A stretch of 19,679 nt of DNA from Candidatus Hadarchaeales archaeon. GTDB lineage: Archaea; Hadarchaeota; Hadarchaeia; Hadarchaeales; Hadarchaeaceae. Of the stretch, positions 12,001 through 18,000 are shown piece after piece. The position numbers are program-made. The DNA lies in NCBI GenBank assembly GCA_038872135.1, contig JAVZGN010000017.1:2668-22346 (forward strand), read 5' to 3'. The first letter of the stretch is position 1; each line of letters opens with the position of its first letter.

Positions 12001-15000
12001 CCTCGGTCAGCTTTTCTATCGCGGGAAAAATCACTTCTTCCTCTAGGGCGAAGTGTTTCTTCATGAACTCTATCAGAGTTTTTGCAGAGCGGACGGCCGA
12101 GTTCTTCATCTTCTCTTCCCGGTATTCAACAGCTCTTGCTATATCTTTCTTGGCCACCGAGAGTATCCTTTCCCAATCATCTGCTTCCATGTCGGTAAAC
12201 TTCACCGGGAGCTTTCTCGGAATCATGTCTAGTTCAGCGTAAATCGTCTCCTTTTCCAAATTGAAGTGATCCCAGAGATTCTCCACCAGTCTCACAAGCC
12301 TCTCAAGGACTTTCCAAACATCGGCCTCTTTTGAAAGCATCTTCTCTATTGTAGCTATCTCCTTCAAAGCCCCTTCATGTTCAGTTTTCAGATATTCCAC
12401 TATCTCGTTCATACAATTCCCCTACTTTAGCACCTCTCCAGTTTTTAAATACCAGAGGAAGAGGTCAAGCTCTCCTGGGGGCATCTTCACCCTCTTCGCC
12501 ATTGAACAGAACTTTTTCTCATACTCGAGATATCTCCTTCTCGTGAGGGCACCACCCCCCCAATCTATAATGCCATTTTCCTTCATGAGAGATAGGATGT
12601 GGCGGTCCAGGATGGCGAAATCCAAGAACCCAACATTTCTCAGAAAATGGCTTGCCTCCTTGTATCCTATGCCCAATACATTTGAAGCTAGCCACTCCCT
12701 CATCTCGGTGGGATCTTCCATCTCCAGCAAAATCTCCTTTATTTTCAGATATCTCCTGGCAGCCACGATGAACCTTGCCCTCTGGCTGTAAAACCTGTGG
12801 CCGGCCTCTCTCAGCTTCTTCACCAGTGTTGAAAACGGCAGATGGATGAATCCATCGCTTCCAAGCTCCTCCTGAATTTTTATCCCAAGCTTTGCTGAGG
12901 AGTTGGCGGTGAGAATGCAGAAGCACAGCTCAGAGAACCACCGTTCATCCCCTTCCATGCCGGTTCTTTTGAATTCATCAATCCGCCGAGCCACAGTTTC
13001 CCCCACTTCGCCTCTTTTGAGATCCATCACCAGCTCCACCAGCTTCTCCATTTAATCTGAGATGCTTTTTTACCGGATGAAATAAGTAATTTTGTTTGCA
13101 TGGTTGGAGGATATGCTGGCAGGATCCTCAGAGTAAACCTGGCTGAGAAAAAGATTGTAGATGAGCCGCTAGATCTGAGAATTGCATACAATTTTCTGGG
13201 GGGACGTGGTTATGGAGCATACATCCTCTACAAAGAGCTGAAGCCGAAAGTAGATCCACTTTCTCAAAATAACAAAATTGTGGTGATGACCGGTCCTCTC
13301 ACAGGAACGATGTTCCCGGGAGCCGGCAGAACTGCAGTTTGTTCAAAATCTCCATTGACAGGCACAATAGCGGATTCTCTCATGGGCGGTTCATTTGGAG
13401 TTTTTCTCAAGCGGGCCTTATTCGATGGAATCATTATTGAGGGCAAGGCCGAAAAACCGGTTTATCTTGTGGTTGAGGATGGCGAGGCTTCTCTCGAGGA
13501 CGCCGGCGATATCTGGAGCAGGGGAACAGCCGAGACAAAGGAGCTCCTCCTTAAAAAACATCCCGGCTCCTCCGTCGCAGCAATTGGGCCGGCTGGAGAA
13601 AACCTCTGTAGATTCTCGACAATTTCATCTGGTGGTAGTGGCAGGGACGGCATCGCTGGGAGATGCGGCATGGGGACGGTGATGGGGTCAAAAAATCTCA
13701 AGGCGATAGTGGCATGTGGCTCGGCGAAAATCGAGATCTCCGATGAGAAAAATGCTCAGAAGCTCTTGAGGAAGATAAGGGGGCTTGTGGAAAACCATCC
13801 GATAACAGGCTCAGATGGAAGTCTCGCGAGATTTGGAACTGGAGTCCTCGTTCACAAGATAGCATCCGCCGGTCTTCTCCCATCCTTCAACTTTTCAAAC
13901 AAAAAACTTGATTACAAAGAGGTAGACCCATTCTCCGGGGAAACTGTAAAGGAAAAATATCTCTTGAGACGCACAGCCTGCTTTGCATGTCCAACCGCCT
14001 GCGGTAGATGGGTGAGGGTTGGAGTTTGGGAAGGAAAGGGTCCAGAGTTCGAGAGTGTGGCGATGCTCGGCCCAAACGCCGGCTTTTTTGATTATGAGAA
14101 AGAGATAGTCCCTCTGAGCAACCTTTGCGACGATTTGGGTCTAGACACAATTTCCGCTGGTGCCTTGTTGGGCTACCTCAGGAAAGCCGGCAAGATAACC
14201 AGCGTTGGTGATGCAGTGAAGGTTCTGCAAGATGCAGCTTCTGGAAAATCGCTTTTCAGCTTGGGCTTGGCGGAAGTAGCCAAGAAGATTCGTGGTCCGG
14301 TAGCTCCAGTGGTTAAAGGACTGGAAATGCCCGCTTACGATCCCAGAGGGGCAAGGGGGATCGCCCTGGCTTATGCTACCTCAAACAGAGGGGCCTGCCA
14401 CCTCCGGGCATACACCATCGCCCCGGAAATCTACAGCAACCCAGAGTTCGTGGATCCATCAACAGAAGTAGGAAAAGCATCTCTGGTTAAAAAAATCCAG
14501 GATGCTTACGCCGTCTACGATTCCTTGGTGGCATGCAAGTTTCACAGTTTTGCGCTCTTTGCTACTCTCGACTTTGAGTTAGATGATATCGCAAGGCTCC
14601 TGACAGCCGTCACAGGGTTAATGTGGACTGGAAAGCATCTGAAGGAGGTCGGAGCCAGAATCTATTCTCTCGAAAGAATGTTCAATGTGAGAGAGGGTTT
14701 CACGGCAAAGGATGATTCACTGCCAAAGGAGTTCGGAATAAATCTCCAACGCATGCTTTCAGAGTATTACAGGGAGAGGGGCTGGAGCGCCTCGGGGGTG
14801 CCGAAGAAGACAATTCAACTGAGAAATGTTAGGAGGGGAAAGCTAGGTGATTTCAAGCTCACCCCACTGGAAGGTCTGAAGTTCCCACAACTTCAGGTGG
14901 CTCTAGACCTGGATGCAGATCTCTCCACAATTGAGAAAATAGCAAAAGAAGCCTACGCTGGAGGGGCGAGAATAATTGAGGCTGGCACCCCGGCGATCAA

Positions 15001-18000
15001 AAGGCATGGCGTGGAGAAGCTCCTGCCTAGGCTTAGAAAGGCTGCTCCGGAAGCGATCCTGGTGGCAGACCTAAAGACAATGGATGTGGGAAATCTTGAG
15101 GCGAGGATTGCTTTTAGGGCGGGAGCGGATATCTCGGCAGTTTTGGCGATAGGCGGAAAAGCGAAGATAGTTGAGGCAGTGGGCGAAGCCATCCGCTGGG
15201 ACAGGGCAATTCTAATAGATTTCATCGATTGCCAGGACCCGCTGGCGGTGATGGAAGATTTGGCAAAGGAACTGGTTGGACATGAAGACAGGGTAATCTT
15301 TTGCATTCACAGGGGGATAAGCGAGCAGCTGAAGGGCCGGGGGATCCACGAGCAGGCCCAGCTGATAGCCGAGGCAAAGAAGATCGCGGGCAGGTTCCCA
15401 CTTGCAGTGGCCGGGGGGATAAAGGAAGGAGTGGCAAAGGATGTGGCTGCGGCAGGAGCGGACATTTGCATCGCCGGAGGCGCCATCTACAACTCTGCTG
15501 ATCCAAGAGAAGCCGCAAGGAGAATCCTGAAAGAAATAGTTTCCAAGTGATATTGTCTCTAAAAACGATCACCGCTGCGACAGGCCATCATCACTTTTCT
15601 CCAGCAGAAAGCGGCGGCTGAAATCACTGAGAAGATTTTTCCGGATAGGGAGTTGTTTCAATCATTACTGGGCTTTCTCCCACAGGCTCTCTGAGGATAG
15701 CAATTCTCGCCTCCTCGGCAACCTCTGCAACCGGCAGGGGGAGGTTTGCCAGCTGGTGAAGAACTTCGGCCGCTTGCAGAATCCCCCTCTGGAGATCCCC
15801 TTCCTCCGCCGATGATCTTCTCACCAGCTCAGCCCACTCCACTTCTCCCTCCGCCCACCTGAGGAGAGCGCCGGCCATCATGGTAGCAGAGCTTTTTCTC
15901 CCGCCTTCGAAGGCTTCTCCAAAGTTCGATCGCTCAACACCATGGATCTTTTCAAGGGCGTCAAGCTCAAAGGCTATTTTTGCCAGCGGCTTCAGGTTTA
16001 CCGTTGCAACAAGATTTCGTGGAGCTCTTTCAGCGACAACAGCCCCCGCCCATCCCGCCATCTCTTCTGCTGTGAGATTTTCCATCAGGCCCCGCTTGAG
16101 CGCCTCGGTGATTAGAAGTGATCTCTCAACCCTTACCATCGCCGCCCACTTTCCGATGGTTGTGAGTTTCCATTCATCATCAAGGTATCCAAGTCTCCTC
16201 AGGATGGTGGCCTTCGCCATGAACTCAGACTTCAGCCTCCTCTCCACCACCTCAGCCTTTTTCCTGCTTCGCCGGTGAGTCTGGAAAACAGCGAGACTTT
16301 TGCCCACCACTTCCAGGGCATCCTTCATCTCCATTCCCGAGAGAAGGTTCAAAATCTGATAATACTGGACCCTGAAAGCAGAAAACAGCTCTTCAGGAGC
16401 GCTTTTCGCAAGCTCTTCAGCCATCCTAATATCCGCAGGGCTGTGGGGAATCACAAGCACAAAGCCAACCTTGTCTTTTCCCCTCCTCCCAGCTCTCCCG
16501 GTCATCTGGTGGAATTCTAGGGCGCTCAGCGGCCTCTCCCCTTTTTTGTCTCCGACCCAGAGGGTCGGCAGGACAACGCTTCTGGCCGGAACATCAAGCC
16601 CGGCGGCCAAGGTTGTTGTGGCGAAGACAACATTCACAAGACCGGCGGCCAGCATCCTCTCGACGGCAATCTTCCAGGCGGTGATGTGCCCGGCGTGATG
16701 AGGAGCAACACCCCCGTTTATGAGAATTTTAGCCATGGGATGATTTGAAATCCAGGGATATGCTTTTGCAAGCTCGGAGAACATTCCGCTTCTTTCATTT
16801 CTCCCATCAGCCACGACATTTCTGAAGGATAGAGCTGCAAGATCGCAGTCCCTCCTCCTCGGGAGAAAAATTATGGCAGGCAGTAGATCGAGAGAATCAA
16901 GCATTCTTGCAGTTTTTACCGGGTCAAAGAACCTCCAGAACAGCCTCCGCCCTCTTCTGGGTAATCTAATACCCAGTGGGAGAGCCCTTCCCGAAGAGTC
17001 AAGCATCCCATACCTAAGGGGCACAGGTCTTTCCTCCGGCGGTACGGAAATCAGGGTTGGAGCTTTTCCCCTCACTTCAGCCATCCAATCGGCGATTTCC
17101 TCAGCATTGGCAATGGTTGCCGAAAGCAGGAGGAGGCGGACATCGGGAGGGCTGAAGATGATTATCTCCTCCCAAGTGACTCCCCTCTCTTCCTCTCCTA
17201 TGTAATGGGCTTCGTCCAGAACCACAATCTTTGCATCAGCCTTCCCCTCATAGAGGCGATTCCGGAAAATCTCTGTTGTGGCAACAAGCACTTGGGCGTC
17301 AGGATTTTCCTGTCTCTCCCCTGTCAGTAGCCCAACCCTCCCTTCCCCAAAGATTTCTCTGAATCTATCATACTTCTGGTTGCTGAGAGCTTTAAGGGGA
17401 GTAGTGTACCAGCACCGCCCCCCAATCTTTAGAAATCTCTCAATGGCTTTTTCAGCGATCCAAGTCTTCCCGCTCCCCGTTGGCGCAACAACAATCGTGT
17501 CATTTTCAACAACAGAAGCGAGAGCTCTACTCTGGAATGGTGAGGGGACAAATGGCTGGGGTTCAGGCTCTCCAAGTCCTTTAAGGAATTCCTCAGCAAT
17601 TCTGTCAAGATGTTTCAATTCTATCCCCGAAACCTCAACCAGCTCAGACCTTCCCGAGTGATTCCTGCTTTTCAACTTCCTTCAGCTTTGCAGGCAGATA
17701 CTCATTCACAACATAGGGCAATCCATATTTCGCGAAGGCCTGCTGCTCAGCCTTTTTCCCAATTTCCATCATCTTCTTTATCTCAGACTGCCAGAATTCA
17801 GTGTTATACCTCGGATCCTTCTGCAGCTGCTTCAATCTCGCTATATCAAGCTCCCTTAGTTTGTCTGTGGGAAGGGAGTAGTTGACGATGTCGCTGGCTG
17901 TAACCCCTATGAACTTTGCATCCGGGACAGCCAGCTCATGGTTGATGTAGGCAAGCTTTGCACTCCCGGAGATTATCACCATCGCTATGTGAAAGCCGAA

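Follow-up and report, generated by a model that had tools for sequence, protein, structure and literature searches.

The window, the whole 19,679-nucleotide stretch of DNA that was analysed, carries a single reading frame of 816 amino acids, with an ATG start and no internal stops, in which a module of the aldehyde:ferredoxin oxidoreductase (AOR) family is joined by a linker to a module of the HPS (3-hexulose-6-phosphate synthase) type. This architecture, the core of the survey's finding, was recovered here as one frame with AFOR_N, AFOR_C and OMPdecase all above their cut-offs, and the structure and family scores given with it (1aor, 9lj9, 3ajx, OMP decarboxylase, RuMP_HxlA and pyrF) were reproduced within rounding. 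The features of the gene are the following:

13100..15550, + strand: fused gene P0001 (AOR module, linker and HPS module), a single ORF with three Pfam domains
13118..13720, + strand: AFOR_N domain, residues 7-207, including Arg77, aligned with Arg76 of 1aor (PF02730, 251.5 bits, cut-off 29.8)
13763..14812, + strand: AFOR_C domains 2 and 3, residues 222-571, with the cluster and pterin/active-site residues (PF01314, 300.1 bits, cut-off 27; aligned to 1aor and 9mqx)
13979..14002, + strand: Cys294-x2-Cys297-x3-Cys301, three of the four [4Fe-4S] ligands, aligned with CxxCxxxC of 1aor
14051..14053, + strand: Glu318, aligned with the active-site Glu of 1aor (GPEYE motif)
14399-14401, + strand: His434, aligned with the active-site His of 1aor
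14534-14536, + strand: Cys479, the fourth [4Fe-4S] ligand, aligned with the later Cys of 1aor
14813..14884, + strand: linker, residues 572-595 (24 residues), with an L-[TSK]-P-L core common to both fused groups (alignment, pLDDT)
14885..15526, + strand: HPS-type TIM barrel of the OMPdecase family, residues 596-809 (PF00215, 86.9 bits, cut-off 27)
15068..15085, + strand: Asp657-x-Lys659-x-x-Asp662 (ADLKTMD), the catalytic D-x-K-x-x-D motif of the suprafamily, aligned with 3ajx and 9lj9

The fusion is real and confirmed; its AOR/HPS junction is spanned, free of indels, by independently assembled contigs from runs of two separate studies (X1 record 4, 14142-14898, and X2 record 13, 14494-15650). 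The AlphaFold2 model of P0001 (60 relatives) has a mean pLDDT of 94.2 and a pTM of 0.90, with the linker at 85-94. Because the whole-chain pTM is this high and the linker is well predicted, the two modules would be held in a fixed relative arrangement. Residue conservation was counted over 81 full-length fused proteins, 64 in group 1, to which this protein belongs, and 17 in group 2. Within the linker, Pro589 is found in 58/64 and 15/17 of these, respectively, and Leu590 in 42/64 and 12/17. In the AOR module, Arg77, all four cluster cysteines, the pterin-contacting Asp349 and Asp474, and Glu318 and His434, which we take to be active-site residues from their roles in P. furiosus AOR, are invariant in 81/81, as is each of the HPS catalytic residues Asp603, Glu627, Asp657, Lys659, Asp662, Asp707 and His737. 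Since cofactor and catalytic residues alike are kept throughout, both modules appear catalytically intact.

By sequence, the AOR part matches the solved structures 9mqx (2.1e-116) and 1aor (8.7e-115) better than the formaldehyde oxidoreductase (FOR) of P. furiosus, 1b25 (2.9e-74), and by Foldseek it superposes on 9mqx, 9g7j and 1aor with TM (target) of 0.88-0.89 and rmsd of 2.0-2.3. It shares about 36-40% identity across the whole module with AORs (P. furiosus 1aor; bacterial 9mqx, 9g7j and 8c0z), together with the fold (TM (target) 0.85-0.89) and the aligned cluster cysteines, Glu, His and first pterin motif. Unlike them, however, the fused module is about 30 residues shorter, has a 6-residue insertion past the fourth Cys (in groups 1 and 2), retains the Asp and Cys but not the Gly-Leu of the second pterin motif, and is followed by an HPS barrel. 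FOR, of the same family and fold (TM (target) 0.85) and named for the reaction proposed below, is the more distant relative; its Km for formaldehyde is very high, so that this distance says little on formaldehyde use. Tungsten is an assumption in the naming of the module, as W and Mo cannot be told apart from sequence.

The C-terminal part alone retrieves the HPS structures 9lj9 (5.3e-28) and 3ajx (7.1e-28), the latter with a Foldseek TM (target) of 0.92 and rmsd of 1.9. Other suprafamily structures follow at 7.7e-10 (OMP decarboxylase 2cz5) and 1.4e-7 (KGPDC 1xbx). Identity as OMP decarboxylase or KGPDC was rejected, HPS structures scoring far better (about 6e-28). At the positions changed in the E112D/R139V/T169A mutant of KGPDC (1xbx), the fused protein has Asp707, Ile740 and Ala771. 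No pyrE above cut-off was found in the source genome (1.08 Mb, 91% complete), so that there would be no OMP to decarboxylate. Among NCBIfam models, RuMP_HxlA gives 132 bits, below its cut-off of 200, with Fae-Hps PRK13307 at 138.6 (cut-off 274), pyrF TIGR01740 at 28.8 (cut-off 92.3) and PRK13813 at 35.5 (cut-off 208).

As the survey had reported, the fused ORF is the sole PF00215 match in the source genome, and a separate 6-phospho-3-hexuloisomerase (PHI) gene scores above its cut-off (C13:13667-14227, minus strand, 204 aa, 205.6 bits, cut-off 160). Across the 65 genomes surveyed in the order, PHI is present in 20 of the 22 with the fusion and in 24 of the 26 with this HPS type, as well as in 5/5 Methanomethylicia genomes carrying the fusion. 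The fused gene adjoins Top6A in three genomes (G004, G025, G041); canonical HPS is flanked by Top6A and PanB in two (G019, G014) and adjoins PanB in G008, and the unfused HPS of group 1 is a neighbour of PanB in G027, G043 and G044. Given this common neighbourhood, and since no second HPS occurs in 24 of the 26 genomes with this HPS type, fused or not, the fused HPS is the lineage's own HPS in its usual slot. Within the genus, the AOR module comes and goes with the cofactor system: the source genome and G042, both with the fusion, have 7 and 5 AOR genes, respectively, and 2 MoeA each, whereas their genus-mates G043 and G044 have neither AOR genes nor MoeA and carry the same HPS unfused.

Fusion was found in 22 of the 65 genomes of the order. 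Nineteen have full open frames (803-947 aa, families f1, f3 and f4), the number and family spread previously stated; the three others are fused but incomplete, two ending at contig ends (G028, G057) and one broken inside the HPS part (G005). All three Pfam domains occur in 82 of 91 database matches, in line with the earlier statement that most have the full architecture, and AFOR_C and OMPdecase only in 3 more. The fusion also occurs in Methanomethylicia (complete Methanosuratincola genomes included) and in Nezhaarchaeales, Asgard and Thermoplasmata-labelled records, with at least 145 fusion clusters across all groups. In the AOR tree, all 40 fused modules form one clade (SH-aLRT 95) together with P0265, a 654-aa record on a 2.3-kb contig and with no OMPdecase match; their sister clade consists of ordinary unfused AORs, including a paralogue from the source genome (C5:34256). 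For HPS, a constraint joining all 49 fusion-derived modules was not rejected (lnL 7.46 above the free tree, p-AU 0.569). As both the trees and the common linker fit a single origin, the distribution would fit one old fusion event, retained across several phyla. Unfused HPS orthologues are scattered within the fused clade, with five changes of the unfused label of which starred branches force at least two. Four cluster representatives (P0066, P0095, P0097, P0098) have intact HPS residues and an AOR remnant only, without Glu, His, Arg77 and Asp474 and with most pterin contacts gone. No paper describing an AOR-HPS fusion was found in the literature; the bare AFOR_N-AFOR_C-TIM_barrel architecture is, as noted before, listed uncommented in a supplementary table of PMC11237513.

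The closest parallel is Fae-Hps of methanogens (NF009833/PRK13307; Methanosarcina barkeri, Methanospirillum hungatei), where HPS likewise follows an N-terminal formaldehyde-consuming enzyme. According to PMC5241800, Fae, when joined to HPS, "might immediately capture formaldehyde", and the fusion is read as catching formaldehyde from hexulose 6-phosphate cleavage for pentose or RuBP supply. Fae, of about 160 aa, performs a non-redox condensation with tetrahydromethanopterin, whereas here HPS is joined to a metal-pterin/[4Fe-4S] oxidoreductase of 575 aa, whose predicted products are formate and reduced ferredoxin. Fae-HPS fusions, 400-442 aa long, occur in 7 of the 65 genomes of the order, where HPS has an N-terminal AOR module, an N-terminal Fae or no partner; both kinds of fusion are present only in G057, and no Fae was found in the source genome or in any of the five Methanomethylicia genomes with the fusion. 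The HPS-PHI fusion of Thermococcales (NF041755; P. horikoshii O59601; 9lj9, the best solved relative of our barrel) is an archaeal HPS of the reverse RuMP pathway with PHI, the next pathway enzyme, at its C-terminus; here PHI is a gene of its own, and the fused partner would use the by-product.

We propose, at about an even chance, that the protein is a bifunctional enzyme of reverse RuMP pentose synthesis. The separate PHI would convert fructose 6-phosphate to D-arabino-3-hexulose 6-phosphate, which the C-terminal barrel would cleave to ribulose 5-phosphate and formaldehyde; RpiA would turn the former into ribose 5-phosphate, and the N-terminal module, with its metal-bis-pterin and [4Fe-4S] centres, would oxidise the latter on the enzyme to formate, passing two electrons to ferredoxin. 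Removal of formaldehyde would pull an otherwise unfavourable cleavage and avert poisoning, by the logic of methanogen Fae-Hps with a redox sink replacing tetrahydromethanopterin. Here we infer the substrate, the direction, the metal, the hand-over of formaldehyde between sites and what becomes of the formate. That HPS formaldehyde is handed to AOR, as the survey's finding had it, gains support from the Fae parallel, the invariant residues, the co-occurrence of PHI and the joint loss of AOR genes and MoeA, so that the comparative evidence points to formaldehyde. The hand-over itself stays conditional, and several observations count against it. As before, no formate user was identified, nor was an exporter, PF00384, PF01268, PF06973 and PF01226 giving no match in the source genome (91% complete); unfused orthologues show HPS of the fused type to work without the AOR module; the AOR module is the second-lowest of seven AFOR_C matches in its genome (302.7 bits, range 301-507); and in the source genome the fused gene stands among unrelated genes for DNA repair and replication. 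Transketolase-like and TAL/FSA-like genes are also present, so RuMP may not be the genome's sole pentose route.

A reversal of both modules is distinctly unlikely: reduced ferredoxin would drive reduction of formate to formaldehyde by AOR, and HPS would immediately trap it with ribulose 5-phosphate as hexulose 6-phosphate, from which fructose 6-phosphate would follow. If true, formate would be assimilated, or salvaged pentoses would enter a C5 + C1 -> C6 route. AORs do reduce acids given strong reductants, but formate reduction requires electrons of very low potential (about -0.53 V), and no formate importer was found in the source genome. The fusion would nevertheless matter most in this direction, free formaldehyde staying very low; no other formate enzyme was found in the genome, which resembles that of a nucleotide salvager (neither PurP nor a pyrE above cut-off found, RuBisCO large subunit and RpiA encoded), so that pentoses may be input and not product. 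PMC5241800 describes HPS and PHI as reversible, and formate -> formaldehyde -> RuMP is proposed, with other enzymes, for a Crenarchaeon in PMC7143981; yet archaeal HPS/PHI is usually taken to form pentoses, and the Fae-HPS parallel, found in this same order, to be a sink for HPS-released formaldehyde.

That both modules are active but uncoupled, AOR oxidising other aldehydes like its six paralogues and the fusion serving only co-regulation or stability, is a minor but serious possibility. The AOR part has its nearest relatives among broad-specificity AORs (393 and 388 bits, against 254 for P. furiosus FOR), which also counts against formaldehyde coupling, its sister clade is of ordinary AORs, and HPS orthologues work unfused; on the other hand, one gene order and a conserved linker were kept through several phyla, the N-terminal partner that HPS acquired elsewhere in the same order is Fae, which is a formaldehyde enzyme, and the model is compact (pTM 0.90). 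A divergent barrel with a different chemistry (aldol or decarboxylation), which would act on some other sugar phosphate or release some other aldehyde, the AOR module then oxidising that product, seems very improbable. The sub-cut-off HPS equivalog score and the length of the stem below the group-1 clade (0.84 in the tree), both of them unfavourable to the coupled enzyme as well, and the change of Asp to Ser in the canonical H-x-G-[IL]-D-x-Q motif of 61/64 group-1 members would agree with it, but every catalytic residue is kept, the gene sits in the canonical HPS slot, canonical HPS is missing and PHI present in 24/26 genomes each, and group-2 fusions have ordinary HPS modules (PF00215 118-127 bits). 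Barely plausible is an AOR module that is decaying or purely structural: remnant forms and unfused orthologues exist, and AFOR_C scores 300 bits against 458-463 in group 2. Against such decay, the checked residues are invariant in 64/64 group-1 proteins, this one included, and its loss coincides exactly with that of MoeA and all AORs, as expected if the module needs the cofactor. Under the proposed coupling of HPS cleavage to formaldehyde oxidation, the fusion in this hot-spring Hadarchaeota archaeon probably reveals a route for the disposal of toxic formaldehyde from hexulose-phosphate cleavage.

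The survey's finding had described one 816-aa reading frame joining an aldehyde:ferredoxin oxidoreductase (AOR) to a hexulose-6-phosphate synthase (HPS); this arrangement is confirmed by the open frame itself and by the three Pfam domains it contains:

Window 13100-15550, plus strand: fused gene, single open reading frame of 816 aa
Residues 7-207 of the product: AFOR_N, Pfam 251.5 bits (cut-off 29.8)
Residues 222-571: AFOR_C, Pfam 300.1 bits (cut-off 27)
Residues 596-809: OMPdecase, Pfam 86.9 bits, far above cut-off

Both AFOR domains exceed their gathering scores and follow each other in the order of the AOR family. 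Among solved structures, the AOR part is closest in sequence to 9mqx (2.1e-116) and 1aor (8.7e-115), with the formaldehyde:ferredoxin oxidoreductase (FOR) 1b25 farther away (2.9e-74), so that the earlier remark that it stands nearer to AOR than to FOR holds. The C-terminal part alone matches the HPS structures 9lj9 (5.3e-28) and 3ajx (7.1e-28) better than OMP decarboxylase (7.7e-10) or KGPDC (1.4e-7). As had been cautioned, its score with the NCBIfam model RuMP_HxlA (TIGR03128), 132 bits, lies below the equivalog cut-off of 200, and it reaches 138.6 bits with the Fae-Hps model PRK13307 (equivalog cut-off 274). KGPDC models give 40-55 bits, and pyrF models, far behind the HPS-like ones, reach 28.8 bits (TIGR01740, cut-off 92.3) and 35.5 bits. 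Despite the score below the curated cut-off, HPS is the best-fitting named function for the barrel; we assign the modules to the AOR family and, from residues and context rather than curated score, to HPS.

An AlphaFold2 model of the whole chain, built with 60 relatives, has a mean pLDDT of 94.2 and a pTM of 0.90. When superposed, its AOR part reaches a TM by target of 0.88-0.89 with AOR structures, and its HPS part reaches 0.92 with the HPS 3ajx. The pTM and the confidently modelled linker suggest that the two modules adopt a fixed mutual arrangement. A predicted-complex run of residues 1-578 (AOR) against 585-816 (HPS) scored 0.05 relative to a mark of 0.32, a result that counts neither way. 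The junction between the modules is spanned without insertions or deletions by contigs of public sequencing runs from two different studies, and the runs containing the sequence are hot-spring metagenomes, no RNA run being listed among them.

Catalytic and cofactor residues were compared in an alignment of 81 full-length fused proteins, comprising 64 of the Hadarchaeota type (group 1) and 17 of a second set (group 2). In the AOR module, the four [4Fe-4S] ligands Cys294, 297, 301 and 479 (CxxCxxxC plus a distal Cys) as well as Glu318, His434, Asp349, Asp474 and Arg77 align with their counterparts in 1aor, and none of the 81 sequences lacks any of them; the roles of Glu318, His434 and the pterin-motif residues are presumed to be those of 1aor. 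The first pterin motif (D-x-x-G-L-[DC]) is complete (DDLGLDT). The second is only partly kept (DSLVAC), with Asp474 and Cys479 present and Gly-Leu lost, and other small departures from the AOR consensus are Phe for Tyr before the Glu and Arg for Lys after the His. The HPS module is equally well preserved, with Asp603, Glu627, Asp657, Lys659, Asp662, Asp707 and His737 each found in all 81 proteins. All of these except Asp707 align with 3ajx and 9lj9 as the catalytic and metal set of the suprafamily, and we take their roles to be those they have in the two structures. Asp707, Ile740 and Ala771 occupy the positions mutated in KGPDC 1xbx (E112D/R139V/T169A); the HPS structures likewise carry Asp, Ile and Ala there, and positions 112, 139 and 169 are assumed here to be markers of the HPS type. 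In group 1, the H-x-G-[IL]-D-x-Q motif of HPS structures has Ser for Asp in 61 of 64 sequences.

The fusion is not a peculiarity of one assembly. A scan of 65 genomes of the order with the HPS part as query recovered, from 19 genomes of three families, orthologues at 60-79% identity that lie inside open frames of 803-947 aa; this count was reproduced, as was every other number of the survey's finding. Three further genomes have an incomplete fusion, cut by contig ends in G028 and G057 and interrupted inside the HPS part in G005 (L036, contig C14), where a 680-aa frame stopping near HPS residue 72 is followed by a 185-aa frame, either through a frameshift or through an assembly error. The same HPS type occurs unfused in four genomes (G043, G044, G027 and G051; about 232-247 aa where complete), and twelve other genomes have only a canonical HPS at 34-43% identity; the two types are found together only in G051 and G057. 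Beyond the order, two database listings combined yield at least 145 distinct three-domain clusters at 90% identity (82 of 91 matches in the first and 78 among the 120 matches listed in the second, 15 being common to both). They are labelled, among others, as Methanomethylicaceae, Nezhaarchaeales, 'Thermoprotei', Promethearchaeota, Hodarchaeales, Heimdallarchaeota, Thermoplasmata and Bathyarchaeia. Both Ca. Methanosuratincola verstraetei LCB70 and M. petrocarbonis LWZ-6, whose genomes are complete, have the gene; at locus L058 of the former species it spans roughly CP186953.1:1197661-1200153. Fused proteins are inconsistently named in public records, as AOR, HPS or OMP decarboxylase, and pathway reconstructions may therefore overlook either half. 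Two kinds of variant were also encountered. Five proteins of 991-1014 aa (P0099, P0305, P0308, P0335 and P0339) combine an AOR module with two OMPdecase-family stretches. Four cluster representatives of 602-666 aa (P0066, P0095, P0097 and P0098) have an intact HPS barrel behind an AOR remnant of 380-430 aa that keeps the four Cys and is without Glu, His, Arg77 and Asp474; possibly this remnant is a module in the course of being lost, or else an appendage that is Fe-S only.

The AOR-module tree, of 62 rows, unites the full set of 40 fused modules in a single clade (SH-aLRT 95) that also includes P0265, a 654-aa protein without OMPdecase match whose record, on a 2.3-kb contig, is probably cut. 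The stem of group 1 is long in this tree (0.46), and the sister of the fused clade consists of ordinary unfused AORs, including a paralogue from the genome of the window. The HPS-module tree, of 93 rows, has a clade (99) on a long stem (0.84) in which group 1 is joined by five unfused and four remnant forms, and group 2 forms a separate clade (95) beside canonical archaeal HPS. Two independent origins of the fusion find no support in the AOR-module clade or in a constrained HPS tree uniting all 49 fusion-derived modules, which was not rejected (lnL +7.46 over the free tree, p-AU 0.569). Both groups share a linker core L-x-P-L, and sequences of each show an insertion of 6 residues behind the fourth Cys. 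We read the trees as pointing to one fusion event, afterwards inherited or spread across phyla, with the AOR module then lost secondarily several times, since unfused forms are scattered inside the fused clade.

The fused gene adjoins Top6A in G004, G025 and G041. Six genomes of the order other than that of the window have PanB adjacent to HPS (L028, L035, L037, L038, L040 and L041). In G019 and G014, the canonical HPS is flanked by Top6A on one side and PanB on the other, and in G008 it adjoins PanB, which is co-directional and downstream in all three; the unfused group-1 HPS adjoins a divergent PanB in G027, G043 and G044. From this shared neighbourhood, we take the fused barrel to be the lineage's own HPS. 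In the window, the neighbours are an Ogg glycosylase, a hemerythrin-like protein, a Hel308/Ski2-like helicase, Topo VI, DnaG and PanB; in Methanosuratincola they include a ThiS/MoaD-like protein, fumarase and SAM synthetase; neither set provides a pathway clue. The following features were recorded in the window and at related loci:

Window 2-6082, minus strand: very long open frame, 2027 aa or more, running past the window end
Window 8534-9376, minus strand: PanB (ketopantoate hydroxymethyltransferase), 3.7 kb upstream of the fused gene
L058:5579-5971, minus strand: ThiS/MoaD-family gene of Ca. Methanosuratincola verstraetei, divergent from and upstream of the fused gene
L042 (G008:C97:3460-7684), same-strand cluster: DapA-family aldolase, AOR and two PHI-like SIS proteins
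L011 (C11:5616-10451 in the genome of the window): transketolase-like gene, 634 aa, 402 bits (cut-off 488), between SDR and PseF-like cytidylyltransferase genes

PanB requires a one-carbon unit, and formaldehyde derived from HPS might supply it, or the adjacency might be mere conserved gene order; in G027, the other neighbour of HPS is a phosphopantothenate synthetase. The ThiS/MoaD-family gene may be linked to pterin cofactor synthesis. The L042 cluster represents a further association of an aldolase, an AOR and sugar-phosphate isomerases: of the paralogues, its AOR (593 aa) is the one closest to the AOR part of the fusion (47% identity), and its two PHI-like proteins, a pair also present in G009, score 145 and 134 bits, under the cut-off of 160.

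Comparative evidence bears on function. HPS and the separate isomerase PHI are both present in 34 of the 65 genomes and both lacking in 23, with HPS only in 4 and PHI only in 4. PHI accompanies the fusion in 20 of 22 genomes of the order and in all five Methanomethylicia genomes with the fusion, and four of these five have no strong HPS-like match besides the fused barrel. Seven genomes of this order have Fae joined to the N-terminus of HPS (frames of 400-442 aa), an arrangement read in PMC5241800 as instant capture of the formaldehyde released by HPS. Fae was found neither in the genome of the window nor in the five Methanomethylicia genomes, and both kinds of fusion occur together only in G057. 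The authors of the capture reading reportedly cite Goenrich et al. 2005 for it. Within one genus, the genome of the window and G042 have 7 and 5 AOR genes, respectively, two MoeA each and the fusion; AOR genes and MoeA are both missing from G043 (95% complete, 9 contigs) and from G044, where the HPS is unfused. This is the pattern expected if the AOR module were a working cofactor enzyme dispensable to HPS; the loss may be a single evolutionary event and is in that sense anecdotal. Taken as a whole, these comparisons lend good support to a link between the fusion and formaldehyde.

Going by the labels of its close homologues, the window belongs to Hadarchaeota (Hadarchaeales/Hadesarchaea). The assembly of the window (1.08 Mb, 34 contigs, 91% complete) contains seven AFOR_C genes including the fused one, two MoeA genes, RpiA, the RuBisCO large subunit, and a separate PHI at 205.6 bits (cut-off 160), the pathway partner of HPS. 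The MoeA genes are indirect evidence that the AOR module may bind a tungsten or molybdenum bis-pterin cofactor. No second PF00215 gene was detected in it, and the best pyrE match reaches 23.9 bits (cut-off 106.8). The idea that the barrel is the missing OMP decarboxylase was dropped on this absence of a pyrE above cut-off and on the 28.8-bit pyrF score. An RHP-like cycle was rejected as well: RuBisCO is present, but PRK was found in none of four genomes, this one among them. In the same assembly, no match was obtained for the molybdopterin-oxidoreductase family (PF00384), and hence for a classical formate dehydrogenase, nor for FTHFS (PF01268), PurP (PF06973) or a FocA-type channel (PF01226); the survey's statement that no formate-consuming enzyme was identified thus stands for these four families. 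The lack of pyrE above cut-off, PurP and a second PF00215 gene suggests that the organism is a nucleotide salvager. About 2.3 kb beyond the transketolase-like gene on contig C11 lies a TAL/FSA-family gene, matched only here among the four genomes of the genus, and this stretch might represent either a glycan-related cluster or an island that was acquired. Given apparent salvage and a possible partial non-oxidative pentose route, the need for, and direction of, a RuMP pathway in this particular organism are uncertain.

Reverse RuMP pentose synthesis in archaea releases one formaldehyde per pentose. A Thermococcus kodakarensis mutant deleted for hps-phi reportedly requires nucleosides. In the reading we consider to have about an even chance of being correct, PHI would convert fructose 6-phosphate to hexulose 6-phosphate, the HPS barrel would cleave this to ribulose 5-phosphate and formaldehyde, the AOR module would oxidise the formaldehyde to formate with reduction of ferredoxin via the [4Fe-4S] cluster, and RpiA would yield ribose 5-phosphate. 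The equilibrium constant of the cleavage is about 4e-5 M, and the reaction is unfavourable unless formaldehyde is very low, so that a fused sink would both pull it and protect the cell. Against this stand the HPS score below the equivalog cut-off, the fact that in several genomes this HPS type works by itself, and the four cluster representatives that retain no more than an AOR remnant; in addition, with no formate enzyme or channel found, formate would need another exit from the cell. The closer kinship of the AOR module with broad-range AORs than with FOR counts for little, because the Km of FOR for formaldehyde is in its turn very high. The same protein could conceivably run in the other direction, low-potential ferredoxin driving the reduction of formate at the pterin site to formaldehyde that is retained in the protein and joined to ribulose 5-phosphate to give hexulose phosphate. 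From redox potentials, the overall reaction is probably near equilibrium; we regard the reverse use as improbable. If true, it would constitute a hitherto unknown reductive entry of formate into sugars (C5 + C1 to C6) in Hadarchaeota, Methanomethylicia and some Asgard archaea, and a natural formate-fixing module on one polypeptide, of interest for engineered formate assimilation.

Oxidative removal of formaldehyde, the reading we prefer, has a parallel in Fae-Hps, which likewise couples HPS to a formaldehyde sink, and the fused protein may work similarly; unlike Fae-Hps, it has no Fae domain (PF08714) N-terminal to HPS and is not a member of that family. No published description of an AOR-HPS fusion was found, and supplements of the genome papers cited may still mention the gene. 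The bare architecture 'AFOR_N-AFOR_C-CL0036(TIM_barrel)' has a single row in supplementary file 2 of PMC11237513, as the survey had indicated, and goes unmentioned in the main text of that paper. The Brockarchaeota and Asgard genome papers name AOR next to HPS/PHI, each as its own way of dealing with formaldehyde. The fusion is real and widespread, a variant of a known theme that has apparently not been described.

To our knowledge, the only formaldehyde sink described for this route is that of methanogens with Fae and tetrahydromethanopterin. The fusion is a candidate formaldehyde sink in lineages without Fae and makes an open question testable; the experiment is within reach, as the fusion is present in complete genomes of Methanosuratincola, organisms that are now in culture. 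If formaldehyde is indeed its substrate, the fused protein would become the first of the AOR family to have its physiological aldehyde assigned from genomic evidence.
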